40,607 nt of DNA from Methanocellales archaeon (lineage in GTDB: Archaea > Halobacteriota > JAWCLZ01). A model generated the notes under the pieces. The model had not been told where the DNA came from and ran no database searches. It was given only the letters and a program-made list of their open reading frames with translations. Positions 6,749 to 23,272 of this stretch are shown in pieces (the stretch's first letter is position 1; the number at the start of each line of letters is the position of its first letter). The DNA is taken from positions 1 to 40,607 of the forward strand of contig JAWCMA010000011.1 of the NCBI GenBank assembly GCA_038850285.1, written 5' to 3'. Made by a program: the position numbers and the translations under genes.

Positions 6749-6954
6749 GCTTCCACCAAGCTCTCGGCAATCTTCAAATTCATTATGTAGTCATCGATGG
6801 TTGAAATCAAGGTGCCAATTTCACCCACTTCTATCTCTGTGATGATATAATCTTTGCTCACACTCAAGTGCATATTAGGTAAATTATCTGGTTCAACTGA
6901 TTTTGCAATAATTGGAGAAACATTTGGAATTATGAGTTTGCAATAGCACCTCAA
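6727..6954 (-). CDS. pcc1: KEOPS complex subunit Pcc1
   Basis: 75 aa with S..PDN and L.STIDD...NLKIA, in the conserved position after the DHH gene in the rps15 cluster. Confidence 0.8.
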
Positions 6955-8315: not shown

Positions 8316-8773
8316 TATTTAGCTGCCATTAGCTCGGCTATCTCAGGTCGATACTCCCAGTCAGCTGGCAGTACTCCTTCCTCGCGATAGTAATTAACAA
8401 GTCTTCTTATCTTAGACTCAGTATTTTGAAGCGATCTTTTATTATGCAAGTCCTTTGGAGAATTAGCTAAATGCGCTTTTAATCTAAGTGCCTTTTTAAT
8501 TAGATTTTGAAGATCCTCAGGAATCTCAGGAGCTATTTTATTTTCCCTCAGGATTTGAGTGATTTTTTTACCAGTGGCAACTTCTACATCTGGCACGCCA
8601 TATTTATCTCGCAGTACAATGCCAATCTTACTCGAAGATAAACCTTGAGTTCGCAGTTTAACAGCGAGTTTTTCAATCTCTTTAGGCGAAATCATAAGCC
8701 ACTCTGGGGGGGTCTTTCGATTCACACGAGAGGACTTCGAAGATCCCCTTCGCCTAGTATGCATCTTAGCCAA
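8315..8773 (-). CDS. rps15: 30S ribosomal protein S15 (uS15)
   Basis: MAKMHTRRRGSS, IGIVLRDKYGVP and ESKIRRLVNYY. Confidence 0.97.
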   Translation of the reverse strand: MAKMHTRRRGSSKSSRVNRKTPPEWLMISPKEIEKLAVKLRTQGLSSSKIGIVLRDKYGVPDVEVATGKKITQILRENKIAPEIPEDLQNLIKKALRLKAHLANSPKDLHNKRSLQNTESKIRRLVNYYREEGVLPADWEYRPEIAELMAAK

Positions 8774-8856
8774 ATTAATTCCTCCGAATAAATCTCTTAA
8801 ATATTAGCCTTTATGATAAAAATCTTTTGCTAGCTGCTAATGCTAATCGCTTCCTC

Positions 8857-9471
8857 TCACTTAAGCGGTGTAATTATATATTTACACATTCTATCGCCTT
8901 TTGCTAAACACATAGCTCGAATCAAAGTGACATTTCCAAGTACTTTAACAATTGTTTTAGCATCCACTTCGCAAACTATATCTTCATTTTGCTTGGCTAA
9001 ATCCCAAAATACACAGTTGCGCTTTATAAGCGCATAGCTGCCATCTTCCTCCTTAGAATATGAAGCATAGCAGCCGAATTCAGTTAAATAAGCTGCAAAT
9101 GCCTTTATCCTTTCCTCAAGAAAGCCCTCTTTAGGTTTGAAGTGCTTAACTATTTCATCAGATACCTCTTCCAATATAGCCTTAGCATATTCTTTACCAC
9201 TGCGCTCGATAATCTTTGTCAAGAGTAATGAAGCCATTAAGGAGTATCGCTTCACAAAGGAATCCCTAGCTTTATCGGTAAGTGAATATATCTTCTTTGG
9301 CCTGCCCATACCAATTTGCTTAAAGGTAAAGGTGACCAAGCCTTCTTTTTCCATGAAATCAAGATGCCGGCGGATGGCAAATTCTCTTATCCCAAGTTGC
9401 TTTGAAAGCTGTATTGTACTCATATCCTCGAAAAGCAGGTACTCCAATATTTTTTTCTTAGTATTAATCAT
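8857..9471 (-). CDS. ArsR/SufR-like HTH regulator with a Cys-containing C-terminal sensor domain
   Basis: AIRRHLDFMEKEGLV..GRPKKIYSLT, then NCVF..VC..C..GD..C. Start placed at MINTK (9471); the ORF extends to 9534. Confidence 0.85.
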   Translation of the reverse strand: MINTKKKILEYLLFEDMSTIQLSKQLGIREFAIRRHLDFMEKEGLVTFTFKQIGMGRPKKIYSLTDKARDSFVKRYSLMASLLLTKIIERSGKEYAKAILEEVSDEIVKHFKPKEGFLEERIKAFAAYLTEFGCYASYSKEEDGSYALIKRNCVFWDLAKQNEDIVCEVDAKTIVKVLGNVTLIRAMCLAKGDRMCKYIITPLK

Positions 9472-9778
9472 ATATTTATTAAAAGTTTTAATTTCAACAG
9501 CATTGGGCGTTTCAAATCCCCCCACTTTAAACACTAAATGTTATTCTAAAATATAAATTTATTGAAAAGAGAAAAGATGTAATGGCTGTTTGCTCTGAAT
9601 AATGCTGTAATTGTAACCATAGTTGAAACTAATCATAATTTTCGCATCCAACAATTATAATAACGCTATCCTCGAATCAAGTTGGACATCATCAACCATT
9701 ACAAAAGATAAAGATAATAATATTAAGATAAACAAAAGATAAAAGATAAATATAAATTCCTCTCCAACGAACAATTTT

Positions 9779-10639
9779 TTGATGGGCAGAATAGATCAGC
9801 AGCGGTGGGAAATGCTCTTGAAAAAAGAATATGATCGCTGCCAGAAATGCAGTCGAGAGCTAAAAAATTTAGATAAAGAGAGAAATGGTTTCAGTGTATA
9901 TTGCGATGCCTGCGACTTAGGCTACTATGTGGGAAGAGTCATGGATGTTTATTATGAGAGATTTTATACCTATAGAGAAGTCTGTGCAATTTGCAGCAAA
10001 GAGATCTTGAAAGAACAAGCAACCATGCATTTTTTAGAAAGCATAGTTGATTTTAAATACAACGTTTATGCTTTAGGTGTATGTGAAAATTGCAAGCAAA
10101 GTCAATTTTATAAGAAACTCGAAAAAGTTTTTTTAGACGAAGACATAAAGGCAAAGCTTATCTTCCAAGCACGGCAGATCTTTGCCAAACTTAAAAGCAG
10201 TAAAAAATTCAAGCGCTTGCCCCATGAAACTTTAGTTGAAATCTCGCTAAAGCTAGCTTGCGATGAAAATGGCTGCATTGCTCCATTTGAACCCAAAATG
10301 AGCTATTTAACTCAAGCTCGGAAAATAATTGGTATAAGGCAGCGGATGACGCCAGTTGAATACACTGAGGCTCAAATGATGATCCTGGCGAGGAGAAATG
10401 AAGAATTAAGCGTACATAGCTTTAAAATCGAGTCACTAGCCAAGGAAATTTTAAGCAAATTAAAACCAATTGGCCATAATCCAGCTGTGCTATCCGCAGC
10501 CGCTATATACCTCTCCTCAGAGGGCTTACTTTCTCAGAGAGAAATCGAAAAAGCGCTTAACATCTCTCAAGTTAGCATTTCTAATATAAGTAGAAAAATG
10601 AAAGCAGAGCTCAAGCTAGAGAGAGGCGGAGGGGGGTAA
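9779..10639 (+). CDS. Divergent TFB/TFIIB-like protein with four N-terminal CxxC pairs
   Basis: C-terminal PAVLSAAAIYL..SQREIEKALNISQVSISN aligns with the second cyclin repeat of the TFB at 25925. CQKC, CDAC, CAIC and CENC lie N-terminally. Confidence 0.7.
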   Translation: MMGRIDQQRWEMLLKKEYDRCQKCSRELKNLDKERNGFSVYCDACDLGYYVGRVMDVYYERFYTYREVCAICSKEILKEQATMHFLESIVDFKYNVYALGVCENCKQSQFYKKLEKVFLDEDIKAKLIFQARQIFAKLKSSKKFKRLPHETLVEISLKLACDENGCIAPFEPKMSYLTQARKIIGIRQRMTPVEYTEAQMMILARRNEELSVHSFKIESLAKEILSKLKPIGHNPAVLSAAAIYLSSEGLLSQREIEKALNISQVSISNISRKMKAELKLERGGGG

Positions 10640-10678
10640 AGCTTAAAAACATCTGCGATATAATGTTAAGCCAAGCAC

Positions 10679-12019
10679 ATGCAAAATAAGCAAATCGAAA
10701 AGCTATATTCCTTCGTCAGTGAGAACCTCTATTTCAACATCCCAGATATCCAAGTTGAGGAAAAAGGATATAACTCAACTCTGCTTTTAAGCCTCATCAC
10801 AGCACTCACAGGGGGTAAGGAGTTAATAGTAGGCGAGCCAGGACTGGGCAAAACCACGAGTGCAGAGTACATTTCCTGCTTGATCTATCAGCTCCCACTT
10901 GATATCATTTGGGATTCTGAAGTAGAGGGACACCCGGAGCAAACTGAGGAGAAAATTAAAGGCAGACCAGACCTAGGTGAGTTAAATATAGGTAGAGAAG
11001 AAGTTATTTGGTCTAATTTCACTCAGCTTCAGCCTAAAATAGTTGACGAGATCAACCGCCTCCCCCCTTCGAAGCAAAGCATTATATTAAAGGGCTGCGA
11101 CACAGGAATATGGCGATACCTCGACGAGCTGCTGGTGAATGAAGAATATTGCTTATTCGCCACCGCTAACTATTCAGATAGAGGAACAACTGAGCTTTTA
11201 CCCCCTTTGCTTGACCGCTTCGACGTTGAAGTTGAATCTAAGCACCCTGGTGCAATTTTTTCCTCTGAAATAAATGGAAGGAAGAAAGAAGTAGAGAGAA
11301 TTATAAGAGACATACAGCTCACTAAGGAGATAAATAAAGTTCTCAAAAGCAAAGTGGGATATGAGGAGAAAATCAAGAAAGTAAGAGAGCTATCAAAGCT
11401 ATATGCTGCGAAGCTGGAGAAAGAATTCGGGATTGCAACTCCAAGCTATGAAGATAGAGAGAAAATTAGAAGGGAAATTAAAAGCATAGAGCTAAGCGAA
11501 GATGCAGCTGCCTTTCTGCTAACCCTCATTGCTGAACTCAGCTTCTGCTATGTTTACGGGCAGAAGAGAACTGCACAGAGCTGTGAAGAAGGCTGCCATT
11601 ACATTGGATATCTCTGCCATGCGATTGAAAACTGCGCTTCCAATAGAATACCTAGGTCCATAAAGGAATACTCCCGAGCCTTAACTTGGTTTTTAGCTGG
11701 GAAAGAGGTAAGCATTGAGCATCTCCGCGAGATTGCACCCTATGCACTTGCTCATAGAATTCGCTGGAGCGATGCTTTTCTCTCGAAATATAAAAAGGAA
11801 TTAAGAAAGGATCCAGCTGATATATTCCTTGCAAAAAAAGCTGTAACAGAAGTCTTCAATCGCTATGCTGAGCAGAAGAATGAAATAAAGAGCGCGCTTA
11901 AAACCGCTTACTATGTCGCTGAGGGCAAAGCAGGGGTTGAGGCACTTGTAGAGGGGGATCACCCGATTTATAAGGAAATTAAGAAATATGTGGTAAAGAA
12001 TGAGTATGAGTATACTTAA
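10679..12019 (+). CDS. MoxR-like AAA+ ATPase with a Cys/His-rich insertion
   Basis: Walker A GEPGLGKT, Walker B IVDEINR, FATAN, LLDRF and ALAHRI. Confidence 0.88.
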   Translation: MQNKQIEKLYSFVSENLYFNIPDIQVEEKGYNSTLLLSLITALTGGKELIVGEPGLGKTTSAEYISCLIYQLPLDIIWDSEVEGHPEQTEEKIKGRPDLGELNIGREEVIWSNFTQLQPKIVDEINRLPPSKQSIILKGCDTGIWRYLDELLVNEEYCLFATANYSDRGTTELLPPLLDRFDVEVESKHPGAIFSSEINGRKKEVERIIRDIQLTKEINKVLKSKVGYEEKIKKVRELSKLYAAKLEKEFGIATPSYEDREKIRREIKSIELSEDAAAFLLTLIAELSFCYVYGQKRTAQSCEEGCHYIGYLCHAIENCASNRIPRSIKEYSRALTWFLAGKEVSIEHLREIAPYALAHRIRWSDAFLSKYKKELRKDPADIFLAKKAVTEVFNRYAEQKNEIKSALKTAYYVAEGKAGVEALVEGDHPIYKEIKKYVVKNEYEYT

Positions 12020-12773
12020 AAAATTCAAAGACTTCAGCCCTAGTGGAAGGGAGATACCCAAGCGCTTAGATAAATTGGAAGAAGTCATTGATGACTATGA
12101 AAGATGGCTTGCCGAAGTTGAACTATGCTATATATACGATATATTCAAAATCCCTAAGCCCCGGAGCCATAGCGCGAGGGATATCCATAGATTTTCCAAA
12201 TATCCCTATGAAGTTAAAGATAGAGAATTCACCCACTCAGGGGTATTTCTCTCACTGCTAGTGAATGAATCAGAGGATAGTGAATTTGAACTTGAACTCG
12301 AGGAAAGGATAAACTACATGGGCAAGGAAAATCGTAAAAAGATCACAATCAAAGGCGATGTCGGTAGCTACCTAGGTTATTATATGCAGGGAGGGGAGAT
12401 AATTGTTCAAGGCAGCGCGGGAAGTAGAGCTGGAAGCTGCATGAATGGAGGTAGAATAATAATAAAAGGAGAAGCAGGGGACTGGCTCGGGGAGAGCATG
12501 CAAAATGGAGAAATAATCGTGGAGGGCAGCGCTGGAGCAGGCGTGGGCTTTAACATGGCGGGCGGGAGAATTATTATAAAGGGAGATACCTCTCATTCCC
12601 TAGGCTATGGTATGAGAGCGGGGGAAATAATCATCGAGGGAAACGCAGGTCCTGGCACTGGGGGCAATATGCTAGGTGGAGAGATCTGGGTTAAAGGCAA
12701 GATAGAAAGCCTTGGTGCAGCTAAAGCTGGAAGAATATACGAGGGAAAGGAGAAGATAAAAATCTATGGATAA
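12000..12773 (+). CDS. GXGXG beta-helix protein (FwdC/GltB C-terminal-like)
   Basis: About six repeats of roughly 19 aa, G..M.GG.III.G.AG, preceded by an unrelated N-terminal region. Confidence 0.85.
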   Translation: MSMSILKKFKDFSPSGREIPKRLDKLEEVIDDYERWLAEVELCYIYDIFKIPKPRSHSARDIHRFSKYPYEVKDREFTHSGVFLSLLVNESEDSEFELELEERINYMGKENRKKITIKGDVGSYLGYYMQGGEIIVQGSAGSRAGSCMNGGRIIIKGEAGDWLGESMQNGEIIVEGSAGAGVGFNMAGGRIIIKGDTSHSLGYGMRAGEIIIEGNAGPGTGGNMLGGEIWVKGKIESLGAAKAGRIYEGKEKIKIYG

Positions 12774-14460
12774 CTGGCCGAGTATAGTTAGAGAGCAAGT
12801 TGAGCAGCTTAATTATCAAAGAATAATAGATGAGCTCTGGCCAGAGCTGAGGAAAAAACACCTTTATCCAGCTATTCCCAAGCCAAAGGTTGCATTTCTA
12901 CCTAAGCACTCTGCGCTTCAAATGAAGGACAAGCAAATTAAGGTCAGCAAGGATTTCTGCACCAAACTAGCTGAGAAGATGGAACTAGCTCAAGTTTTAG
13001 AAGCCCTGCTTGATCACGAACTCGCACATCATAGCTTCTGCCCCTTTGACTTAACCACGCATTTATTAATCTATGCCTCAGCAAAAGAAGTACTTGGGAA
13101 CCACGAGAAAGCAGCTAAAGCCGCAGATTGCTTCATGGATATAGCAGCGAATACCTACTGCGTTATGCAAATGGAAACAGCCATACCTGAGCTCTATAGA
13201 AATATGGAGAAATCAGAGCTTGAAAGAGCAATTTGCTCTCTCTATCAAGAGCTCTGGAGAATAGACCTAGGAGTGGAAGAACATATTATTACTAAGAAAC
13301 TTGCTTCAGTGAATTATACCAATAAAGCCATGTGGGAAGCGGAGAGCAAGCGATTTGCAAGATATATAAGAGAACTCCTCCACTTCGATGCAAATCCCAT
13401 GCTAGCCCATGGTTTTGAGAGATACTCAAAAGCAGAAATTGAAAGCAGCCTTCGCGATTTTGCTAAGCGAATTGAAGATCCCAAGAAATTCGGGGAGATA
13501 GTTAGAGATCTGCAGAATTTAATGGTAGATGCTGAAGCTGAAAAGCAAGCTGAGGAAAACGGATCAAAGATACCTTTATATTATAAATATATCGAGAAAA
13601 AAACACTTATGGGGCGAGGTATAGGCAGTTTGATTGATGCAAATGTGCTATTCTATCAAAAACTAGCTGAAAACTATATCATTCCAGTGCAAAAATTGCC
13701 CCTAGAGAAAGACGGCTCGCTCTATCCTTATTCCCTCTCGGAGTGGGAAGTTGAAAGGCCGATTCAAGATATAAACTACTGGGGATCCTTCGGCAAGCTT
13801 TTGCCTGGGATCACGAAGCTATGGAGAAAAGCAGAGGGCGAGACTCACGGTTCTCTGGGGGGCATACCTGATTGCTTGATAGTAATTGACTCCTCAGGCA
13901 GCATGACAAATCCAAGGGAAACCCTTTCCCACGCGGTATTAGGCAGCTTCTGCGCTGCCAATGCCTATCTCGAGAATAGAGCTAGAATAGCGGTTTATAA
14001 CTACAGCGATGCCTTTGGTGGAAATGATATAATTTTAGATTACACTAGAGATAGAAAGCAGATTTATGAAACCCTCTGTAAGTACTTCGGAGGAGGCACT
14101 GCTATTAATTTGAATAAAATTGAAGCACTCAGGAATAAAGCTAATAAACCTGATATCTTTATGATAAGTGATATCGCAATTACCAATTTACCGAGCGTTA
14201 TAGAGTATTTCTCAAGAATTGAAAATAGAACCACACTTGTCTACCTAGGCTTGAATGTTTATGCGGAAGAGCTAATTGAAAAAATTGGCTTGAAAGAAAA
14301 CATAAGTTTATTCAATGTTGAGAAAAGCGAGGATATACCCAAAATCGTGCTAGGCAAAGTTGAGAGCTATATAACTAAGATAGCCAAGCTTCCAGAAATA
14401 ACTAGAAAAGACTTCTACGAGCAGCTTGATAGAGAAATCACCGATGCTTGGAAGACTTAG
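12766..14460 (+). CDS. HExxH metallopeptidase-like / von Willebrand A fusion protein
   Basis: DHELAHH near the N-terminus. MIDAS motif IDSSGSM, GGGT and MISD in the C-terminal third. Confidence 0.85.
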   Translation: MDNWPSIVREQVEQLNYQRIIDELWPELRKKHLYPAIPKPKVAFLPKHSALQMKDKQIKVSKDFCTKLAEKMELAQVLEALLDHELAHHSFCPFDLTTHLLIYASAKEVLGNHEKAAKAADCFMDIAANTYCVMQMETAIPELYRNMEKSELERAICSLYQELWRIDLGVEEHIITKKLASVNYTNKAMWEAESKRFARYIRELLHFDANPMLAHGFERYSKAEIESSLRDFAKRIEDPKKFGEIVRDLQNLMVDAEAEKQAEENGSKIPLYYKYIEKKTLMGRGIGSLIDANVLFYQKLAENYIIPVQKLPLEKDGSLYPYSLSEWEVERPIQDINYWGSFGKLLPGITKLWRKAEGETHGSLGGIPDCLIVIDSSGSMTNPRETLSHAVLGSFCAANAYLENRARIAVYNYSDAFGGNDIILDYTRDRKQIYETLCKYFGGGTAINLNKIEALRNKANKPDIFMISDIAITNLPSVIEYFSRIENRTTLVYLGLNVYAEELIEKIGLKENISLFNVEKSEDIPKIVLGKVESYITKIAKLPEITRKDFYEQLDREITDAWKT

Positions 14461-14773
14461 TTCTTATATTAGTTTCAAAACTGCCAATAATTTAAGCCGC
14501 TTTTTGAACCAAGGTGCAAGCATGCTGACTTAAACCAATTGTTTTCCACCATTCATCCATGATCACTGACATTGCGAACATTGCTGGTGTGCCCGATAAT
14601 GCTATTGTTCTGTAGTTGGGAGGCTTGTTTGATTGGTTTTTTGGGTTTTGTTTGGTGTGTTTGTTTTGGTGTCTTGGTCTGTGGGGGATAATTTTTTTTA
14701 TTGGGAAGGTGTGATTTAGTGATGGGGTAAGCTAACCTGGCTTGCTCTTGAGGTGGTTGTTGGTCGCGGCTTT

Positions 14774-14788
14774 GCCCCTTTTTGGGGC
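14774..14788 (-). terminator. Hairpin immediately after the transposase stop codon
   Basis: GCCCC-TTTTT-GGGGC abutting the stop at 14789-14791. Confidence 0.4.
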
Positions 14789-15798
14789 TTACAATGTGTT
14801 GTATCCTAGTCTGAGTGCATTGTAGGCTGCGACTTTCAACTGCACTTCTTTTTTCTGACACTGGCGCTTCTTGGATAGCAGTGTTTCGCTGAATCTGCGT
14901 TTTATGCTGCGAATCATTGCCTCCATGATTGCTCGTGGATTGTAGTGGCGCTTCCACTTGGGCTTATTCTGATAGTGGTTTTGGATCATTTGTTTCCAAG
15001 CTGGGCAGCCTCTTGCTCTAGTGTTGAGCTGGATGTTTTTCTTGGGTTTGAGATAGGGTGTGCCTCCATTGTCAGCTACGTATTGGGCATTTCGTCTTGA
15101 GAGCAATCCTGGATCTGTGGCAATGTTTCCCAGTTCCATGATGGGTGGTCTTTTCTTCAGAACTTTGATGAAGAGTGGTGCTTCATTGGCATAGCCATGG
15201 CTAACGAGGATTGAGCCAAACATTTGCAGATCTAGGTCAGCAAATCCCTCTAATTTGAGGAATTCTCTCCGAGTAGTGCGCTTTTTAATTCGGATGCTAT
15301 ACCAGAGTGCTCGATTGATGGTTGCAAAACCAGTACCATCGATGGCTCTACGCTTCCTCGGTCTTCCGCGGTTCTTTTTTTCCTTTCAACACCCACTGTA
15401 TAGAGATTTCCTATTAGGCTGTCGAGGTATTTGGCTGGTAATTTTGCCATGTAGTCGTTCATTGTGTTGTAGTGTGGTAGTTCTTTAATGCCTGCTAGCC
15501 TTCGGAGACTGCGATCACTTTTCAAAAGCGAATAAAGCTCTCGATAGGATTTCTTCAAGATCACTTTGAGCAAGAGACACATTATCACTGAGATATAGTC
15601 AGCTGGTTTTCGACCGCGCTTCTTACCTCGGTAGTTTCCTTTCTGCTTTCGTGGAAAGGGATTCGACATAGCTGAAACCTGCTCAAGCAGATTCCGAATC
15701 ATCAATTCCTTATCACGAGTGCGCCAATGATTGTACTTCCGCCAATCTCTAAACTTCTTTTTCTCCCTCTTCCTGTTCTTATTACGTCTAAGTTCCAT
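14789..15798 (-). CDS. DDE transposase split by a -1 frameshift at an A7 run
   Basis: ORF A (from 15798) joined in the -1 frame at 15375-15381 gives ..KNRGRPRKRRAIDGTGF.., continuing into ORF B with ATDPG and Y-x2-R-x3-E-x6-K (YNPRAIMEAMIRSIK). Confidence 0.88.
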
Positions 15799-16964: not shown

Positions 16965-17177
16965 TTATATTCTCTCCATATATTCATATTCGCAGTAGGG
17001 AAAGTCATCTGACCCCACTTTTGCAAATATGCAAGTAGAGCAGTGCTTCGCTACCTCAACCATTTTCTTTTCCACAGGACAGAAGGTTACCTCTGGAGGT
17101 ATAAGCTGGCTTCCAATTCTAGATCTCCATCTCCTCAAAAGTTCTAAATCGCTGGTCACGCATGAATGTATCTCCAC
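16965..17177 (-). CDS. Small Cys-rich hypothetical protein
   Basis: FCP-x-HCSTC-x12-C pattern, 3 bp from the downstream gene. Confidence 0.6.
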   Translation of the reverse strand: MEIHSCVTSDLELLRRWRSRIGSQLIPPEVTFCPVEKKMVEVAKHCSTCIFAKVGSDDFPYCEYEYMERI

Positions 17178-17438
17178 ATAGAATATAAAACTTAGTGATA
17201 GATAAAAAAATATAATTTAAATAAAAATTAAAAAATATAATATAAAGCTGTGTTCATAACAAAACAATAAATACTATTTATAATTTATGTTTTTCTTGGA
17301 TGAATAATAATTATTATTAATAAGTAATGTTATAAAATATAAATTACGAAAAATATAAGTAATTGAAAATCATTAAAATCATGCTGCCGGATAAATGGCA
17401 GGATTTTTAAATAGAATGGAGGTAAAGGAGGTAGAAAA

Positions 17439-18932
17439 TTGACACAAAAAGAGTTGAAAATAAAGGACTTCAAAGACACTTTGATCGAACAGCCATGGCC
17501 AGTGAGAAAAGTGCCATTGAAAGAAGTATGGACTGAACTCTATGCCAAAGAAACAGGTCCAGATCGAGCTTATTCAGACTTCATGGAAGCAAACCTGCAT
17601 CCTAGGCACATGTGGTTAAAACCATTTAATCTCGATGGACTACTAGTGATTGACTGCGCTCCAGACGACCCCAAAGGCTGGTTGCTAGGAACAATGTATG
17701 GCGAGCAAGGCGCATTTGTCATTAAAGTAGAGCCGCCAGGCGGCGAAGAATTTAGAAAGCTGACGCCATTCGGCAGAGAAGAATACATGCTAAAATCACG
17801 AGTCACAGGGGAAGCATGCGGCTTGGACTACATTAACGAGGTTAGAAATAGATACCACATTACCTTAGACCTTACCAAGGAAAAAGGCAGAGAGATATTG
17901 AAGGACTTGGCAGCGAAGGCAGATATATTGTTTGAGAGCTATCCACCGGGCCAATTCGACGCTTGGGGTATTGGCTATAGACAGCTTTCCAAGATTAATC
18001 CACAGCTTGTATATGTATACATCGCTGAACTTGGTGGATGGGGATCAGGTAAGGATAGAGTAAGCAAGCACGGGCAGAGGATGATAGAACCATTTGGACT
18101 ATGCGCTAGCGAATTTGTACATAGCACTGGTTTCCCCCCAGATCAATTACCAAGAGAAAGAGGAGGAAATCCAACTAGATCATCAGCTTACGCAGCTGAT
18201 TTTATTTGTGCTGAGCATGCATTCTTTGCTTCAGTGGCCACGCTCCTTGCTAGAGATGGCGTGACTGAGTGTTCCCAATTGCGAGGAAAAGGGCAGTTCA
18301 TAGAGGTTGCAGCTTCAGAGGCATTTATGGAGCTAAATGACTTCAATGTACCCTGGTACGGCTTCGATGGCAGTATAAAAGCGAGAACAGGCGGTTGGGA
18401 TCCCAATCTCAATCAATATGCTTGGAATCCATGTGCAGATGGCTTCATGATGATCGGCGGACAAAGCGACCGACTTTGGTATCGCATTAACCAGTGCCTT
18501 GAGAGAGATGTACCAGAAGCAGGGAGATTGATCTGCGAAGACCCTATCTGTAAAGAATTGGGTGCGAGGAATCAGCTGGAGATGCTAGTCAAGGCTTATA
18601 CGCTAACTGCTTACTGGCTAGCTAGAAATCCACGTGCCTTTGCTGAGAAGAAGCTGCTTGAGTATGGCATTGCTTCAGGTCCACTCTTGCAGATCGACGA
18701 GGTCTGCGAATATCCAGAGTTCATATACAGACAGCACGTTACACAGATTGAAGATGAGCATTGGGGCAAATTACTGGTGATGAATTCTCCAGTTGCGCAT
18801 CAGCATCGCTGTCCAGCGAGGATAAGATGGCTAGCAAAACCAGTTGGATTTGACACCTACGAGGTATTCGCCAGATTGCTTGGAATGGGACCAGATCAGG
18901 TAGATGAACTTAAAAAGGAGGGCGTGATTTAG
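17439..18932 (+). CDS. Class III (CaiB/BaiF) CoA-transferase, subunit A
   Basis: GAFVIKVEPPGGE, ITLDL....GREIL..L...ADIL.E, GIGY..L..INP.LVY and YAADF. Double GGAGGT ribosome-binding site before a TTG start. Confidence 0.9.
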   Translation: MTQKELKIKDFKDTLIEQPWPVRKVPLKEVWTELYAKETGPDRAYSDFMEANLHPRHMWLKPFNLDGLLVIDCAPDDPKGWLLGTMYGEQGAFVIKVEPPGGEEFRKLTPFGREEYMLKSRVTGEACGLDYINEVRNRYHITLDLTKEKGREILKDLAAKADILFESYPPGQFDAWGIGYRQLSKINPQLVYVYIAELGGWGSGKDRVSKHGQRMIEPFGLCASEFVHSTGFPPDQLPRERGGNPTRSSAYAADFICAEHAFFASVATLLARDGVTECSQLRGKGQFIEVAASEAFMELNDFNVPWYGFDGSIKARTGGWDPNLNQYAWNPCADGFMMIGGQSDRLWYRINQCLERDVPEAGRLICEDPICKELGARNQLEMLVKAYTLTAYWLARNPRAFAEKKLLEYGIASGPLLQIDEVCEYPEFIYRQHVTQIEDEHWGKLLVMNSPVAHQHRCPARIRWLAKPVGFDTYEVFARLLGMGPDQVDELKKEGVI

Positions 18933-18945
18933 GAGGTGAAAAGCA

Positions 18946-20370
18946 ATGGTAACATTTGAAGAAAAAATCTTTGGTGCAAAACCAGAAGAACTCGACAAAC
19001 TTCCATTTGAGGAATACTGCAGAAAGATCTTCGACCCAAAGATGACCTATAAGAAACCAGAGCTATTGAAAGGTTGGCGACATTTAAGCCAGACAATGTA
19101 TATCTTATCGCCCCACGTAGGTGCAACAATTGCGGAGTATGGAGCGCACGTGATAAAATTTGAGATGCCCAGACTCGCGGATCCAATGAGGCATACCTCG
19201 CCCTTCAACGAAGCATACTACTATCCGCTGACTGATACCCGTCCTTACACTGGTACAGGGTTTGGCTTTGCGCAAGCTAATAGAAACGAGGACTTCATAA
19301 CAATTGACTACCACCATCCAGAGGCCAAAGAAATAATGAAGGTCTTCTGGAGGATGTCGGATTCACTTGCAGAATGCTATCGCCCGGGTACATTTAATCG
19401 CTGGGGAATTGGCTATCCACAAGTGCTAGAGGTAAATCCAAAGTTAATTTATTGCTGGCTGGGCGGCTTTGGAGGCGTTGGTCCAGGGAGAAGAAGAGGA
19501 TCTTATGATATTCTAGGGCAGAGCATAGGTGGATTGGCGCATACTACTGGGCAGCATGAAGATTTGATCAAGATAGGAGACAAATATGAAAAGCGCTATT
19601 TGCAAGGCGGCTTTCCAGCGAAGCATAGCAATTGGATCATTGACTGGACATCTGGATTATACTGCGCTTGCGGTATAATGGCAGCTGGCTGGTGGAGGAG
19701 AAAATCAGGATTAGGCACGATGATCGACCTCTCTCAAGTTTCCTGGTCGAATAGATTGTCGCGCTTTGGTTCACTAATGTATGGTAGATTTGGCGTGGTT
19801 AGGCAGAGATGGGGCAACTGGGACGAGCAACTATGCGTGCATGGTATAATTATGACTGGCAAGAGCGACTTCCCAGATAGCGATAATCCACAGGAGAGGG
19901 ATGAAGCAAGATATGTATTAATAAGCGCTTTCAAAGATGCGGACTTTAAAGATCTATGCTATCTTATAAAGCGACCTGATCTCTGGGAGAAATACAAGGA
20001 CACCAAAGTGCGGTTGAAGCCAGAGTCACAAATGGAAATCTATGGTGCACTTGAACTCTGGGCAAAGGATAAAACACGAAGCGAAGTTGTGAAGATACTT
20101 ACTGACGCTGGCTTGCTAAGCATCGCAGTTATGAACGATAGAGATTGCTATGATTTCTCGCAATTCTGGGAGAGAGGTACGCTGACATGGATGAACGACC
20201 CACTGTATGGAGACTTCCTGATGTGCGTTCCAACGCTGGGGTCGCACGCACCACCTAGAGTCAAGTGGGAAGCAAGACCACTTGGCGCGGATAATGTGAA
20301 GATCTATCACGAGTTACTGGGCTTCTCAATGGAGAAGATCAAAGAACTCTATGCAAAGGCGGTGATCTAA
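18946..20370 (+). CDS. Class III (CaiB/BaiF) CoA-transferase, subunit B
   Basis: GAHVIKFE.P...DPMR, YRPG...RWGIGY, YDILGQ..GG, IIDWTSG and LGADN. GGAGGTGA ribosome-binding site. Confidence 0.92.
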   Translation: MVTFEEKIFGAKPEELDKLPFEEYCRKIFDPKMTYKKPELLKGWRHLSQTMYILSPHVGATIAEYGAHVIKFEMPRLADPMRHTSPFNEAYYYPLTDTRPYTGTGFGFAQANRNEDFITIDYHHPEAKEIMKVFWRMSDSLAECYRPGTFNRWGIGYPQVLEVNPKLIYCWLGGFGGVGPGRRRGSYDILGQSIGGLAHTTGQHEDLIKIGDKYEKRYLQGGFPAKHSNWIIDWTSGLYCACGIMAAGWWRRKSGLGTMIDLSQVSWSNRLSRFGSLMYGRFGVVRQRWGNWDEQLCVHGIIMTGKSDFPDSDNPQERDEARYVLISAFKDADFKDLCYLIKRPDLWEKYKDTKVRLKPESQMEIYGALELWAKDKTRSEVVKILTDAGLLSIAVMNDRDCYDFSQFWERGTLTWMNDPLYGDFLMCVPTLGSHAPPRVKWEARPLGADNVKIYHELLGFSMEKIKELYAKAVI

Positions 20371-20371
20371 A

Positions 20372-20929
20372 ATGGTAGACTGGATCGATTGCAAGCACTG
20401 TAGAACCATTAACTACATAGATCCTTGGTACTTCTGGAACTGGAAGGGCAAGATCGCTTGTGCGGGCTGCGGCACAGTTTATTATATTGAGTATTCAAAT
20501 GGCCTCGCAGCGCCTGGAACACCTAAGGAACTGCCCAAGGGCGAGAAGCCAGATGAACTTGTGCTCTATGCCGATAAACCACTTAATGGCTATGAATTCA
20601 TACGCCCAGGCACACCTGGTAAAACAAGGCCATATCTCTGCTTAATGCGAGACCCCAAGACCTACACTGGCAAGGCAAGAAGAATTACTCATAGTATTCG
20701 AGGCTACCCATTTCGAGGTTGGGCGCCTCAGCCACCCTCAGCGCACATTGCGGATAGCCATAGGCACGATGATCGCAATTACTGGGTTCCAGAGGCAGAA
20801 AAGCTAAAGCTATATCCGGAGGTGGTCACGAAGTATGGTCCAAGACCAGCACCAGTAGTCGGCTATGGCTGGTACAATCAGCCTTCGGATAAGCCGCTTA
20901 TTAAAACAGGACCTCATAAGGAGAAGTGA
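20372..20929 (+). CDS. Zn-ribbon protein with a Pro/aromatic-rich tail
   Basis: CKHC..CAGC, tightly coupled to both neighbouring genes. Confidence 0.8.
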   Translation: MVDWIDCKHCRTINYIDPWYFWNWKGKIACAGCGTVYYIEYSNGLAAPGTPKELPKGEKPDELVLYADKPLNGYEFIRPGTPGKTRPYLCLMRDPKTYTGKARRITHSIRGYPFRGWAPQPPSAHIADSHRHDDRNYWVPEAEKLKLYPEVVTKYGPRPAPVVGYGWYNQPSDKPLIKTGPHKEK

Positions 20930-21108
20930 TGGAAATGGCAGAGCATATTTGCAAGGAATGCTATCACTTTAGACCAATTCAACTAGGCACAATCATACCC
21001 CCTGAACATTTAATTGGTTATTGCAAAGCAATCCACTGGCCATATTTCTGGGCAGTGCAGCGAGACTTAGTAGTAACTGAATGTAAATGGTTCGAGAAGA
21101 AGAAATAA
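20926..21108 (+). CDS. 60-aa four-Cys protein resembling BssC/HpdC-type small Fe-S subunits
   Basis: CKECYHFRP..IGYC..W..C-KW-F-EKKK, overlapping the upstream stop, with GGAG upstream. Confidence 0.65.
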   Translation: MMEMAEHICKECYHFRPIQLGTIIPPEHLIGYCKAIHWPYFWAVQRDLVVTECKWFEKKK

Positions 21109-21117
21109 CTTCTTCTC
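21094..21117 (+). terminator. Stem-loop at the end of the CoA-transferase operon
   Basis: GAGAAGAAG-AAATAA-CTTCTTCTC followed by a T-rich tract. Confidence 0.6.
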
Positions 21118-21272
21118 AAATTTTTAATTTGCTGATGAAAGGGAAGAGCCCAGGGTTGTTGAGCCAATTGAATTACCTCCAAATATAATTCCCTCCGAGC
21201 TCTTCCCCATTACCGAATGGTAGAATTTATTAATTTAAATTTAAATATTAAATAGATAAAGAAGTAAGTAAC

Positions 21273-21959
21273 TTGAGATATGCTAAAAATATGCTAAAAG
21301 TAGTTGCTTTGAGTGAAACTCGTATTAAAATTCTAAAGCTGCTTCTGGTTGAAGACAACTGCCCGAGTATGATATCCAAAAAACTGGGAATTAAAGAATT
21401 TGCCATAAGAAGACATCTAGATCTGCTTGAGAAAGAAGGACTTGTAACTTTTTCCTATAAAAAAACAGGCGACGTAGGACGCCCTCTTAAAGTTTACACT
21501 CTTACTGAGAATGGCAAAAAACTTGAAATTTTTCCGAAGCAGCATGCCAAGATGCTTGCTCTTTTGATAGATGACCTCATAAAGCGTTATGGAAAGGAGT
21601 TCGCTATTTCAATCTTTTCAGACGCTGCCAATGAAATGGCAAAGCAATTCTCTAGCTATATTAAAAGTCAGGATCTTGAGTCTAAGTGCAGAGAGCTTAC
21701 AAAAGCATTGAATAGCTTTGGAAAATGCAGCGATTTAGCGAGGGAAGGGGAATGGTACGTTGTATATATTCACAACTGCGTATTCAATGAGATAGCCAAG
21801 ATCTATGGAGATTTAATTTGCGGTTTCATGGATCAAGCCATAAAAAATGCACTTGGAGGCAATATATTGATAGTACGCCAGTTTTCAATAGCCAGAGGCG
21901 ATAAATTTTGCAAGCGATTAATCAAAGAGCTAGCGCCTGATCAATTGGATAAACTATAA
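21273..21959 (+). CDS. ArsR/SufR-like HTH regulator, paralog of 8857-9471
   Basis: LGIKEFAIRRHLDLLEKEGLVTF..GRP.KVY.LT, then HNCVF..IC..RGDKFC. Confidence 0.87.
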   Translation: MRYAKNMLKVVALSETRIKILKLLLVEDNCPSMISKKLGIKEFAIRRHLDLLEKEGLVTFSYKKTGDVGRPLKVYTLTENGKKLEIFPKQHAKMLALLIDDLIKRYGKEFAISIFSDAANEMAKQFSSYIKSQDLESKCRELTKALNSFGKCSDLAREGEWYVVYIHNCVFNEIAKIYGDLICGFMDQAIKNALGGNILIVRQFSIARGDKFCKRLIKELAPDQLDKL

Positions 21960-21997: not shown

Positions 21998-23272
21998 TTG
22001 AAGAAGACTTCAAAGGTTTCGGGTTTTTACAAATTAAGTTTTAAAGAGAGACTTGAGTTCGTGAGAAACTTCGCTAGTCTAAGCGAGGATGAAGTTAAAA
22101 TTCTTTCAAATACAGGTGCACTTGGAGTAGACCTAGCTGATAGAATGATTGAAAATGTAATAGGGGGCTTGACTTTACCTCTTGGAATAGCGGTGAATTT
22201 CCTAATAAATGGCAGAGATTACCTCATTCCCATGGCCATAGAAGAGCCCTCGGTTGTTGCAGCTGCGAGCAATGCAGCGAAGATGGCTAGAGATGGAGGG
22301 GGATTTTTCACCAGCAGCTCAGGTGCACTTATGATTGGCCAGATACAGGCAACTGGGATTAAAGATCCCTATGCTGCGAGAAATCGCATTCTAGAGCGCA
22401 AAGAAGAAATCTTAAAACTTGCGAATGAACAAGATCCAGTGCTGGTTAAATTAGGGGGTGGAGCTAGAGATGTTGAAGCAAGGGTGATTCATACAAATAG
22501 CGGTGCAATGGTGATAACTCATTTAATCGTAGACTGCCGAGATGCAATGGGGGCTAATGCTGTTAATACCATGGCAGAGGCAGCTGCGCCTTTAATCGAG
22601 GAGATAACCAAGGGCAGGGTATATTTAAGGATTATTTCAAACTTCGCTGAAAAGCGCTTAGCTAGAGCTCGAGTTGTGTTCCCAAAGGAAGCAATTGGAG
22701 GCGAAGAAGTGGTGGAGGCGATTCTCATTGCTTATAATTTCGCTGCTTCAGATCACTATCGCGCCACCACTCATAATAAGGGAATTATGAATGGAATAAC
22801 CGCTGTAGCTCTAGCAACTGGAAATGATACTCGCGCTATTGAAGCAGGGGCGCATGCCTATGCGAGTAGAAGCGGTAGATATGAGCCTCTCTCGATATGG
22901 GAGAAGAACCGCGAGGGAGATCTAGCTGGTGCAATTGAGCTTCCCTTAGCAGTTGGAATAGTAGGTGGAGCAACTAAAACCCATCCAACCGCTAGAGTTA
23001 ATCTCAAAATTTTAGGAGTGAAAACCGCTGCTGAACTTGCAGAGGTAATGGCTGCAGTTGGACTTGCCCAGAATTTCGCCGCACTTCGAGCTCTAGCGAC
23101 TGAGGGGATTCAGCGAGGGCATATGAGTCTGCATTCTAGGAATATTGCAATTGCAGCTGGGGCTACAGGTGAATTAATCGATAAAATCGCGGAGATAATG
23201 GTAAAAGAGAGAAAAGTGCGCTTGGATCGAGCGAAGGAACTCCTTGAGGCTGAGAAAGGCTCTAAGCCTTAA
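21998..23272 (+). CDS. mvaA: HMG-CoA reductase, class II (MvaA-like)
   Basis: [28 protein letters not shown] and [10 protein letters not shown]. Confidence 0.93.

Follow-up and report, generated by a model that had tools for sequence, protein, structure and literature searches.

We propose, with moderate confidence, that four adjacent genes of a Methanocellales archaeon specify the central part of a hetero-oligomeric CoA-transferase of family III, and that this core is one portion of a larger module of wide distribution, primed by an acyl-CoA ligase in the manner of CaiB/CaiC. The case is built on computed properties, namely, the arrangement of the genes and its persistence across genomes, the protein families, retention of a candidate catalytic Asp, modelled docking of one small subunit and co-occurrence of a ligase. 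The genes lie in a 40,607-nt stretch of DNA (the window), for which a sequence-only reading had suggested paired class III CoA-transferases with two small metal-binding partners; a heteromeric enzyme of this kind, accompanied by two small proteins rich in Cys, is supported by the analysis. The four open reading frames, A-B-C-D, are all co-directional and, together with the flanking elements, are arranged as follows.

17421..17438, + strand: ribosome-binding region of A, GGAGGTAAAGGAGG, 8 nt 5′ of the TTG start, read directly from the DNA
17439..18932, + strand: subunit A gene, 497 aa, TTG start (from the list of open reading frames)
18946..20370, + strand: subunit B gene, 474 aa (same list)
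20372..20929, + strand: subunit C gene, 185 aa (same list)
20926..21108, + strand: subunit D gene, 60 aa, GTG start (same list)
21094..21117, + strand: terminator-like hairpin with a 9-bp stem and a T-run, overlapping the D stop codon
21273..21959, + strand: ArsR-type HTH regulator gene (HTH_5, 33.9 bits) with a Cys-bearing, SufR-like C-terminal domain

The genes are separated by 13 nt (A/B) and 1 nt (B/C) or overlap by 4 nt (C/D), and these tight or overlapping junctions argue for translational coupling. A long AT-rich spacer lies upstream of the ribosome-binding region of A, and Shine-Dalgarno-like sequences precede each gene: GGAGG/GGAGGTG 7-8 nt 5′ of A and B, GGCGGTGA for C and AAGGAG for D, for which GTG at 20926 and ATG at 20929 are equally good starts, yielding a protein of 59-60 aa. 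A scan of positions 17000-21400 returned 8 terminator-like sites, compared with 3.5 ± 1.8 in shuffled sequences. The four-gene operon with ribosome-binding sites and a terminal hairpin, as initially described, is thus confirmed on the DNA. The regulator encoded further downstream scores 54.9 bits against SufR_cyano, under the cut-off of 178.8, and its gene is conserved beside the module in this archaeal lineage alone, with homologues 3′ of the module in two other loci (L002 and L003).

Both large subunits match the Pfam family CoA_transf_3 (PF02515) along profile positions 1-366, A with 188.1 bits over residues 65-473 and B with 209.7 bits over residues 41-450, against a cut-off of 23.3. The two CaiB/BaiF paralogs, at 497 and 474 aa, are indeed long and N-terminally extended, with 64 residues ahead of the domain in A and 40, which are conserved, in B. 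The candidate catalytic aspartates pointed out by the sequence-only reading, Asp254 in the AADF motif of A and Asp233 in the IIDW motif of B, both align with Asp212 of human SUGCT (PDB 9br7), the top solved relative of B, in which this residue is proven to be catalytic, the D212A variant being inactive. This column is, presumably, that of Asp169 in Frc, and Asp254 of A also aligns with the Asp of the ‘FADIFTG’ motif in 4ed9. Asp233 is invariant in the B orthologues (73/73), and Asp254 is retained in 62 of the 67 aligned A orthologues. The DCAPDDPKGW stretch of A, to which the same reading had drawn attention, is real but lineage-specific, not being conserved among A orthologues. Overall, B shows a mean column identity of 76% (37 sequences), and its archaeal and bacterial orthologues are 54-60% identical. 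A and B themselves are old paralogs with 25-30% identity and a long branch between them in the tree, each with an invariant residue set of its own that includes Cys332 and Cys353 in A, and Cys25 and Cys338 in B.

It is scarcely credible that A and B are an ordinary formyl-CoA:oxalate, carnitine or glutarate CoA-transferase pair, even though the best NCBIfam rows carry those names, SUGCT tops the solved relatives of B, and both subunits have their fold and the column of the catalytic Asp in common with SUGCT, Frc, YfdW, YfdE and CaiB. The scores of A and B, respectively, are 81.7 and 112.2 against a cut-off of 504.2 for formyl-CoA transferase Frc (TIGR03253/NF003809), 81.7 and 116.4 against 442 for the formyl-CoA transferase subfamily model, 58.5 and 51.5 against 413 for L-carnitine CoA-transferase CaiB (NF002914), and 73 and 84 against 750 for the succinate-glutarate transferase model; the NCBIfam cut-offs for oxalate and mesaconate transferases are likewise far above the scores of both proteins. 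Thus, A and B fall 4- to 9-fold under the cut-offs of the SUGCT and Frc/YfdW/YfdE/CaiB families, so that these identities are refuted at the sequence-family level, and the grouping with ordinary formyl-CoA or carnitine transferases against which the initial proposal was to be checked does not materialize. Furthermore, those enzymes, unlike the present pair, are homodimers in which the two sites are equal and accessory subunits are absent, and neither oxalyl-CoA decarboxylase nor cai genes recur in the 80 loci described next.

A pattern scan with C as the bait confirmed 362 of 428 stretches, the best 80 of which were kept for all locus counts. Among these, A-B precedes C in the same order in 65 of the 67 loci whose upstream DNA is long enough to tell, and C is followed by D in all 78 loci with room for it, so the arrangement is not due to chance and the four-gene order is non-random. 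The conserved block continues downstream with genes for a 100-aa protein (74/76 loci), a 143-aa protein (69/73) and a metallo-beta-lactamase-TPR protein, MBL-TPR (60/66), and neighbours outside this core differ between loci. The hosts, hundreds of mostly anaerobic bacteria and archaea, span at least 10 phyla, with Archaea and at least eight bacterial phyla represented, and over this range the small genes remain beside homologous A-B pairs, so that the other condition set to refute the initial proposal does not apply either; strict autotrophs with 1.3-Mb genomes, such as Thermosulfidibacter, carry the module as well. Sigma-54/PAS activators are encoded inside the locus in 21 of the best 80 cases, and some lineages have UbiU/UbiV-like U32 pairs and dehydrogenases for alcohols or aldehydes as recurrent neighbours.

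Neither C nor D matches a Pfam or NCBIfam family. C comprises an N-terminal, zinc-ribbon-like CxxC...CxxC beta domain (residues 1-90), a conserved Arg/Pro-rich arm (91-130) and a tail. In 15 sequences, Cys10, Cys30 and Cys33 show no variation, and conservation of Cys7 is 90% or more; across 82 sequences, each of the four is kept in at least 97%, and an alignment of 36 sequences contains 37 invariant columns. When C is modelled alone, residues 1-90 form a beta-rich head (pLDDT 80-95) and the remainder is disordered; an arm that is conserved yet disordered in isolation is what would be expected of a segment that becomes ordered on a partner. The head matches only zinc fingers and LysW, with Z scores of at most 2.6, and fold searches identified no clear structural relative of C. 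Small zinc-ribbon proteins that hold CoA-ester enzymes together have a precedent in the DUF35 scaffold of the archaeal thiolase/HMG-CoA synthase complex and in BbsA, but C has neither an OB fold nor a match to the DUF35 model.

A model of A (65-497), B (38-474) and C (1-130), with C as the partner, scored 0.71, compared with 0.00-0.04 for 3 controls; the mark for this score is reached by 116 of 157 solved complexes versus 2 of 215 mismatched pairs. Agreement between the runs extends to 73% or more of the contacts, and the partner pLDDT is at least 75. The modelled contacts involve residues 13-22, 65-79 and 88-120 of C, 306-316 and 330-333 of A, and 86-95, 313-316 and 415-425 of B, and coincide with family-specific invariant residues. 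The model thus supports placement of C across the A-B interface, which is the only new information it provides, given that the A-B pair resembles the solved BbsEF. Because it relies on alignments of our own making and is a three-chain job unlike the calibration set, it supports binding of C but falls short of showing it; both N-terminal extensions and D lie outside the modelled segments.

These observations also bear on the alternative that C and D are separate small proteins, for instance, regulators or chaperones, which merely share an operon with the transferase. One Thermoplasmata locus (L018) contains C, D and the downstream genes without A-B within 7 kb upstream, and the 143-aa protein looks AbrB-like, if only as an Atlas lead at 0.76, so that some module members may be regulators. 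However, archaea and bacteria share both the gene order and the overlapping junctions, the residues of A and of B that C touches in the model are invariant, and the arm of C is conserved despite its disorder in isolation. We consider a purely operonic association very unlikely.

Among the conserved residues of D are Cys9, Cys12, Cys33 and Cys53, along with His7 and His37 (alignment of 35 sequences); the four Cys are invariant or nearly so in both 35 and 80 sequences. As a set, they could bind one [4Fe-4S] cluster, although, judging from the residues themselves, they could equally bind Zn or Fe. The D model (pLDDT 82) retrieves 2y8n_B, 4pkf_B, 9pzj and 9o8u as the top, weak Foldseek matches (E 1-4). 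In VIA-align, only 7 of 48,161 chains reach Z ≥2, again weakly: among them are 9o8u_B (3.3), 9pzj_E (3.2), 4pkf_B (3.1), 2y8n_B (3.1) and the HiPIP 1isu_B (2.3). Thus, the same small Fe-S subunits head the list, if weakly, in two independent aligners, and matches of this strength (Z about 3, E about 1) are as expected for 60 residues. D is similar in size and number of Cys, and weakly similar in predicted fold, to the beta and gamma small subunits of benzylsuccinate synthase and (1-methylalkyl)succinate synthase, to HiPIP and to the 4-hydroxyphenylacetate decarboxylase small subunit (Z 2.3-3.3 overall); no other chains match it consistently in structure. The HiPIP-like small subunits of the synthases decorate glycyl radical enzymes, whereas D follows C of a CoA-transferase module.

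An Fe-S-like subunit has no known precedent in a plain transferase, which speaks for an enzyme that converts CoA esters, such as a racemase, a lyase or a redox enzyme (compare AMACR and DddD), in which A would provide a second, different site and the cluster of D would take part in chemistry or electron transfer. Family III racemases are among the PDB matches, the ancient divergence of A and B has left each with its own invariant set, and the U32 pairs and dehydrogenases noted above are found near the module in some lineages. Nevertheless, we regard such a conversion as improbable: the transferase nucleophile in B is kept without exception, a HiPIP-type cluster held by four Cys ligands offers no free iron for Lewis-acid chemistry, no U32 gene was found in the genome of this archaeon, and no redox neighbours are conserved across the best 80 of the 362 loci.

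The favoured reading, a ligase-primed CoA-transferase, draws on a further partner. In all 5 module genomes tested, there is one clear orthologue of an AMP-forming acyl-CoA ligase (52-65% identity), the next paralog being at most 38% identical. Among 151 sampled Thermodesulfobacteriota genomes, 14 encode the C family, 14 the ligase orthologue, 13 both and 136 neither, with C lacking the ligase orthologue in one genome, and among 151 genomes of the window's own phylum, the ligase is present in 7 of the 7 with C and in six Archaeoglobi-type genomes without C; these counts are drawn from related, non-independent genomes. The ligase is dedicated to the module, with an almost one-to-one co-occurrence with C, and its gene resides inside the locus in 13 of the best 80 loci. 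Liv-type ABC transporters adjoin the ligase gene in three genomes. The closest solved relatives of the ligase are anthranilate-CoA ligase (317 bits) and benzoate-CoA ligase (266 bits). Against the benzoate-CoA ligase family (TIGR02262, cut-off 375.25), however, the ligase of this genome scores 273.4 and three orthologues 281-348; scores against all NCBIfam families are under the cut-offs, and the ligase therefore names no substrate. Such a pairing is familiar from the carnitine pathway of E. coli, in which the family III transferase CaiB is accompanied by the AMP-forming ligase CaiC, able to prime the CoA cycle. Here, the pairing takes the form of genome co-occurrence, but there is no crotonase-type CaiD or any other cai gene, and the heteromeric transferase comes with four to five additional proteins.

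The sequence-only reading had favoured activation of an organic or aromatic acid by a BbsEF-like module with Zn and Fe-S helpers, for anaerobic degradation. BbsEF (PDB 9fn0), likewise a family III enzyme with two paralogous subunits encoded side by side, is a detectable relative (E 1.1e-13 for A against 9fn0_A and 1.1e-19 for B against 9fn0_B), albeit not the closest solved one for either subunit. The affinity of the ligase to anthranilate- and benzoate-CoA ligases and the weak resemblance of D to benzylsuccinate synthase subunits point in the same direction, and the sigma-54/PAS activators and Liv-type transporters are typical of inducible catabolic operons. By contrast, A and B are set apart from BbsEF by their N-terminal extensions and by many invariant residues peculiar to them, partners for bbs-type beta-oxidation are absent, and BbsEF is not known to have dedicated small subunits. 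None of the bbs-, bam- or bcr-type genes recur in the best 80 of the 362 loci, nor do those for acyl-CoA dehydrogenase, enoyl-CoA hydratase or thiolase/DUF35. The ‘Magic’ gene cluster found in ORM2a, a benzene-degrading member of the Desulfobacterota, includes MaoC-type hydratases and a GlcDEF-like flavoprotein complex (PMC13101534); at the level of gene content, these recur in none of the 80 loci.

The genome itself argues against such a degradative role. In its 1.28 Mb (93% complete), there are two copies of the A-B-C-D operon but no match to acyl-CoA dehydrogenase (PF00441) or enoyl-CoA hydratase (PF00378), and the suggested search for benzoyl-CoA reductase and beta-oxidation genes turned up only one thiolase and one minimal two-gene HGD-D/BcrAD-type unit, set among tRNA-modification genes; a four-subunit benzoyl-CoA reductase was not found. 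This kind of minimal pair is also matched in Methanocaldococcus jannaschii. The presence of the module in small autotroph-type genomes, such as this one and that of Thermosulfidibacter, also speaks against aromatic catabolism, which, given two operon copies and no beta-oxidation genes, is unsupported here: in this archaeon, the operon does not serve as the entry to aromatic degradation of the benzoyl-CoA type. We thus deem a BbsEF-like catabolic module unlikely, whereas the co-occurrence of the module with a dedicated AMP-forming acyl-CoA ligase keeps the other half of the original suggestion, acid activation, plausible. The description of the host as methanogen-like needs a qualifier, as McrA was searched for and not found. 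The second operon, A′B′C′D′, is on contig C38, next to genes for a 145-aa protein and MBL-TPR, a long form of the 100-aa helical protein is on contig C8 and the dedicated ligase on contig C15; with the module scattered over four contigs, co-regulation cannot be read from the DNA.

From these data we infer a physical complex, its metals, a logic of priming and cycling, and a role for the hydrolase. In the proposed CoA-transferase, B would be the obligatory catalytic subunit, with Asp233 as the residue on which the family III mechanism builds its acyl-aspartyl anhydride and CoA-thioester intermediates, and A its interlocked paralogous partner, in which the nucleophile is usually kept but can be lost. 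C, probably a zinc-binding ribbon protein, would clamp the heterodimer by laying its head and extended arm over the A-B interface, and D, a HiPIP-like four-Cys miniprotein that probably holds a [4Fe-4S] cluster, would have a structural or gating role similar to that of the benzylsuccinate synthase small subunits. The ligase would spend ATP to make the first acyl-CoA of a carboxylic acid, after which the ABCD transferase would pass CoA from product to fresh substrate, and the glyoxalase-II-like hydrolase may clear dead-end thioesters. More tentatively, the whole might be a machine of about eight components, with the A-B pair, clamp C, Fe-S protein D, the helical 100-aa protein, the AbrB-like 143-aa protein, a thioesterase-like MBL-TPR protein bound to the conserved ‘...DW-COOH’ tail of C, and the ligase, serving a widespread step of anaerobic carbon metabolism and representing the first CoA-transferase with an iron-sulfur subunit. 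If so, this step would be common to sulfate reducers, Aquificota-type autotrophs, Methylomirabilota, Acidobacteriota and several archaeal lineages.

In the current view, a family III CoA-transferase is a dimer that suffices by itself. In the present module, the A-B pair never occurs without two, and usually has five, family-less protein partners, one of which resembles an iron-sulfur miniprotein, and by a dedicated ligase, and the assemblage is apparently undescribed as an enzyme module. The partner genes, the 54-60% identity of B across domains and the presence of two copies in a 1.28-Mb genome jointly suggest an important function that is absent from the metabolic maps of anaerobes, a gap that extends to such well-studied groups as Desulfacinum, Desulfobacca, Methylomirabilis-like bacteria and Archaeoglobales. 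With cultured and harmless hosts at hand, namely, Desulfacinum infernum, D. hydrothermale and Desulfovirgula thermocuniculi, the question is ready for the bench.

The paired family III CoA-transferase subunits A and B and their two Cys-rich partner proteins, C and D, form the four-gene operon with ribosome-binding sites and a terminal hairpin that had been described from the sequence alone, and our analysis of the window confirmed its layout:

17439-18932, + strand: A, ORF of 497 aa
18946-20370, + strand: B, ORF of 474 aa
20372-20929, + strand: C, ORF of 185 aa
20926-21108, + strand: D, ORF of 60 aa, or 59 aa if the ATG at 20929 is the start
21094-21117, + strand: hairpin of 9 bp with a T-run, ending the A-B-C-D unit

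All four ORFs are co-directional, with 13 nt between A and B, 1 nt between B and C and an overlap of C and D, and each is preceded by a Shine-Dalgarno-like sequence. The Pfam CoA_transf_3 profile is spanned in full by both A (188 bits) and B (210 bits); C and D have zero matches in Pfam or NCBIfam. The operon stretch is contained in four DNA sequencing runs, all from one hot-spring study, and the sequencing-run search listed no RNA run containing it. Elsewhere in the window, two ORFs at 14553-15798 (- strand), some 1.6 kb before the operon region, are pieces of a DDE transposase (DDE_Tnp_1, DUF772), and a pair of paralogous regulators, each with an ArsR-type HTH and a Cys-bearing SufR/ATC-hydrolase-like C-terminal domain, is encoded at 8857-9534 (- strand) and 21273-21959 (+ strand).

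Judged by sequence family, A and B are not ordinary transferases. None of the curated NCBIfam equivalogs was reached by either protein, every score falling far below the cut-off: 82 for A and 112 for B against 504 for the formyl-CoA transferase model, 58 and 51 against 413 for the carnitine model, 84 and 100 against 700 for the mesaconate model, and 73 and 84 against 750 for the succinate-glutarate model. Scores this low give no sign of the clustering with formyl-CoA or carnitine transferases that the sequence-only reading had regarded as incompatible with its proposal. Among solved structures, B is closest to SUGCT (85 bits) and A to 4ed9, an uncharacterised CaiB/BaiF protein (68 bits), with the BbsE and BbsF chains of the solved BbsEF complex ranking after these (E of 1e-13 for A and 1e-19 for B). 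According to the SUGCT paper, Asp212 is the conserved catalytic residue, the D212A variant is inactive, and the construct covers residues 38-445 (PMC10871334). Chain 9br7_A (412 residues) has this Asp within 'vamtDlatG'; Asp233 of B ('IIDW') aligns with it, and Asp254 of A ('AADF') matches the catalytic column via 'FADIFTG' of 4ed9. Thus, the candidate catalytic residues picked from the sequence of both large subunits were the right ones. The upstream 'SYD' motif (Asp188 in B, with Gln213 of A in the same column, which would make A a dead subunit) was considered as the nucleophile and withdrawn, because the spacing in AMACR and Frc, together with the SUGCT paper, puts the nucleophile at the later 'xxDxxxG' Asp. 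The catalytic Asp is present in 73/73 orthologues of B and in 62 of the 67 aligned orthologues of A, the exceptions having Glu (L006), Ala (L007) or Ser (L035, L051 and L072). This pattern marks B as the obligatory catalytic subunit and the site of A as less constrained. B has a succinate-hydroxymethylglutarate transferase as its top solved relative, which raised the question of whether the HMG-CoA reductase encoded two genes downstream of the operon (21998-23272; class II, 'degradative', NAD-type; TIGR00532 at 522 bits) could be a functional partner. L002 and L003, the loci most closely related, do not share this adjacency, and the idea was therefore dropped.

A word-based search with C returned 14 relatives, all unnamed. 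Of the 428 stretches from a pattern scan with C (one genome per species), 362 were confirmed, and the best 80 were retained. Among these 80 loci, A-B is upstream of C and co-directional with it in 65 of the 67 with room for it, the exceptions being L008, where A-B is divergent, and L018, which has none within 7 kb, and D follows C in 78/78; the small genes are thus kept beside the transferase pairs, the lack of which the sequence-only reading had named as counting against it. The same 80 loci typically continue with a helical protein of ~100 aa (74/76), a ~143-aa protein (69/73), for which an ESM Atlas feature search gave a weak AbrB lead (0.76), and a ~400-aa metallo-beta-lactamase protein with a TPR domain (MBL-TPR; 60/66), the MBL domain of which is nearest to LACTB2 and glyoxalase II. 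As labelled, the hosts of the best 80 loci include archaea (Methanocellales-labelled MAGs, Hydrothermarchaeota, Thermoplasmata and Archaeoglobales) and bacteria (Aquificota, Thermosulfidibacter, Thermodesulfobacteriota, Acidobacteriota, Methylomirabilota, Chloroflexota, the Bacillota Ammonifex and Desulfovirgula, Margulisiibacteriota, Deferrimicrobia and one member of Sulfurifustaceae). Across domains of life, B orthologues share 54-60% identity with that of the window, and the mean column identity is 76%. A quick maximum-likelihood tree was computed from 73 B rows, 4 A rows serving as outgroup. In it, a 64-row bacterial clade (support 99) is separate from the archaeal rows; B of the window clusters with that of L003 (support 100) and then stands beside Hydrothermarchaeota (87, not starred), and the second copy in the same genome groups with L004 and L005. 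When the C profile was run against 1.84 billion cluster representatives, only 55 proteins were found at E <= 0.001, of which 8 reached E <= 1e-30; this is a small, tight family with a more distant 'type 2' branch. No fused or longer forms of C were found among 399 candidates; an apparent C-D fusion, a 243-aa ORF at 7001-7729 of L022 from a Chloroflexota MAG, may be real or an assembly error, given that the coverage of the contig is below 1. A literature search found no description of paired family III CoA-transferases with such partner proteins. The nearest published counterpart found, the 'Magic' cluster of ORM2a, a benzene degrader, differs from the module in gene set and carries MaoC-type and GlcDEF-like genes (PMC13101534).

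The partner proteins were modelled with 36 (C) and 35 (D) sequences. Residues 1-90 of C form a beta-rich head (pLDDT 80-95) that bears the CxxC...CxxC pair; beyond residue 90, C is disordered when folded alone, yet residues 91-130 are strongly conserved. With the C model, Foldseek retrieved nothing at E <= 0.001, VIA-align found no clear relative (best Z 3.2 for the GluRS C-terminal domain and 2.6 for LysW), and the ESM Atlas feature search with C gave chance-level rows only (0.84, PemK). The C-terminal end '...G-E-V-x-(D/E)-W' is exact in 74/82 C sequences (orthologues in L006-L081), and an extension past the terminal Trp is confined to the Methanocellales-labelled copies, that of the window included. 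This conservation suggests that the Trp may belong to a docking tail, the partner of which is possibly the TPR domain of the MBL protein. For D (pLDDT 82), the top Foldseek rows, at E 1-5, were the small subunit of 4-hydroxyphenylacetate decarboxylase, beta/gamma of benzylsuccinate synthase, small subunits of (1-methylalkyl)succinate synthase and a HiPIP; only 7 of 48,161 chains reached Z >= 2 in VIA-align, led by the same entries (Z 3.1-3.3), with the HiPIP 1isu at 2.3. Given its four conserved Cys in CxxC-x20-C-x19-C spacing (35 sequences), D is best, if tentatively, read as a HiPIP-like [4Fe-4S] miniprotein.

For the complex model, residues 65-497 of A, 38-474 of B and 1-130 of C were used, C being the partner, with D and both N-terminal extensions left out. 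The best of 3 controls scored 0.04 and the A-B-C model 0.71, a mark reached by 116/157 solved complexes and 2/215 mismatched pairs, counts that hold only roughly here because our own alignments were used and a three-chain job differs from the calibration. At least 73% of contacts agree between runs, and the partner pLDDT is at least 75. The model supports binding of C to A-B; only the placement of C is new in it, since A-B resembles the solved BbsEF. Predicted contacts of C fall at residues 232-237, 306-316, 330-333 and 361-396 of A and at 86-95, 223, 313-316 and 415-425 of B, and the contact side of C comprises the NY(I/L)DPxxFWNW motif, 'YADKP..GY', Cys90 and the arm 100-120. Family-specific invariants make up nearly all of the modelled contact residues.

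The window's own genome (G000; 1.28 Mb, 39 contigs, 93% complete) contains further parts of the module, and an HGD-D/BcrAD-type pair, on other contigs:

L001 (contig C38), 634-6114, - strand: second operon, A'B'C'D'
L082 (contig C8), 7099-8263: long archaeal form of the 100-aa protein and its neighbour
L094 (contig C5), 6259-7923: HGD-D and BcrAD/BadFG-type ATPase pair, amid queuosine and thioredoxin genes

The four CoA_transf_3 genes of the genome are A-B of the window and the pair of the second operon, the A', B', C' and D' products of which are 71, 74, 85 and 63% identical to their counterparts in the window. This operon is divergent from 145-aa and MBL-TPR module genes, and the duplication is common to related MAGs (L003/L004 and L005). 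On C8, the long form of the 100-aa protein stands alone, the next gene being carboxymuconolactone-decarboxylase/AhpD-like (121 aa). In the closest relatives, L002 and L003, it comes immediately after D and is followed by an ArsR/SufR-like regulator; in the window, the regulator comes directly after D and the long form is missing there. The 217-237-aa gene found after D in related archaea was rejected as an equivalent of the window's regulator, being the long form of the 100-aa protein.

McrA, acyl-CoA dehydrogenase and enoyl-CoA hydratase were not found in this 93% complete genome. The search for benzoyl-CoA reductase and beta-oxidation genes suggested by the sequence-only reading yielded one thiolase and one two-gene HGD-D/BcrAD unit, that on C5, which lies amid tRNA-modification genes and is a minimal pair, not a four-subunit benzoyl-CoA reductase; both families also match in the M. 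jannaschii control. Domains of CdhC, pyruvate:ferredoxin oxidoreductase and ADP-forming acetyl-CoA synthetase are present. This combination of missing and retained genes points to a Wood-Ljungdahl-type, non-methanogenic relative of methanogens that has no visible route of aromatic- or fatty-acid degradation. Thus, of the proposed acid-activation module with accessory proteins, the accessory part is borne out by conserved partner subunits, and aromatic degradation in this host is disfavoured by the missing acyl-CoA dehydrogenase and enoyl-CoA hydratase. The genome also encodes an O-phosphoseryl-tRNA synthetase in the window (5228-6748, - strand) and a canonical cysteinyl-tRNA synthetase on C5 (L094, 2625-4073, - strand).

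An AMP-forming acyl-CoA ligase gene lies within 13/80 of the best 80 loci, and the orthologue of the window's genome is on contig C15 (L083, 7447-9138). This ligase has a single clear counterpart in 5/5 module-bearing genomes examined (52-65% identity, 585-772 bits), the next paralog being at most 38% identical. In an evenly drawn sample of 151 Thermodesulfobacteriota genomes, a C-family gene occurs in 14 (11 strong, 3 with the weak type 2 form only) and the ligase orthologue in 14, with 13 genomes having both, 1 C only, 1 the ligase only and 136 neither. Among 151 genomes of the window's own phylum, C occurs in 7, with the ligase in 7/7 of these, and the ligase occurs without C in six more, all of one family. 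The counts from both samples carry no statistic because related genomes are not independent. The nearest solved structures are anthranilate- and benzoate-CoA ligases; the ligase falls below the cut-off of every NCBIfam family and therefore does not name the substrate. One orthologue, at G108:C16:24624-26255 (in L086), was read through an in-frame TGA, which could reflect a pseudogene, a sequencing error or selenocysteine.

The ligase is also part of the type 2 module of Thermodesulfobacteriota:

L084 (G034:C11), 6356-13514: type 2 module; further copies in L085, L086, L087 and L088

In L084, A2-B2-C2-D2 is followed by a relative of the 100-aa protein, then by the ligase, an HDAC-like protein and a 4HBT thioesterase; upstream of the module are conserved uncharacterised genes of 474-493 aa and 68 aa. 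The ligase of Desulfovirgula (L093) shares an operon with a Liv-type ABC transporter and two U32 genes, and this operon runs divergently from the module. U32 'peptidase' genes, 2-3 in tandem, adjoin the ligase at L090 4457-7188, L093 4717-6600 and L084 13475-14281, the hosts being Thermosulfidibacter, Desulfovirgula and one Thermodesulfobacteriota genome. Their products resemble the O2-independent hydroxylases UbiU/UbiV, at scores below the cut-offs for these. U32 genes were not found in the window's genome, and they were rejected as an obligatory part of the module for that reason.

Computation established the gene architecture and its conservation, the docking of C in the model and the co-occurrence of the ligase. 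We infer a physical complex, its metals and a working logic for the module. The ligase would spend ATP to prime a carboxylate as a CoA thioester, and Asp233 of B would drive the family III cycle, moving CoA between product and fresh substrate, a cycle known from the literature on Frc and CaiB. C would clamp the A-B heterodimer, D would supply an Fe-S-bearing cap, and the MBL-TPR protein, which is glyoxalase-II-like, may remove dead-end thioesters by hydrolysis.

The sequence-only reading is thus partly supported: the operon was confirmed and the interpretation of the partner subunits held, and aromatic degradation in this genome did not.
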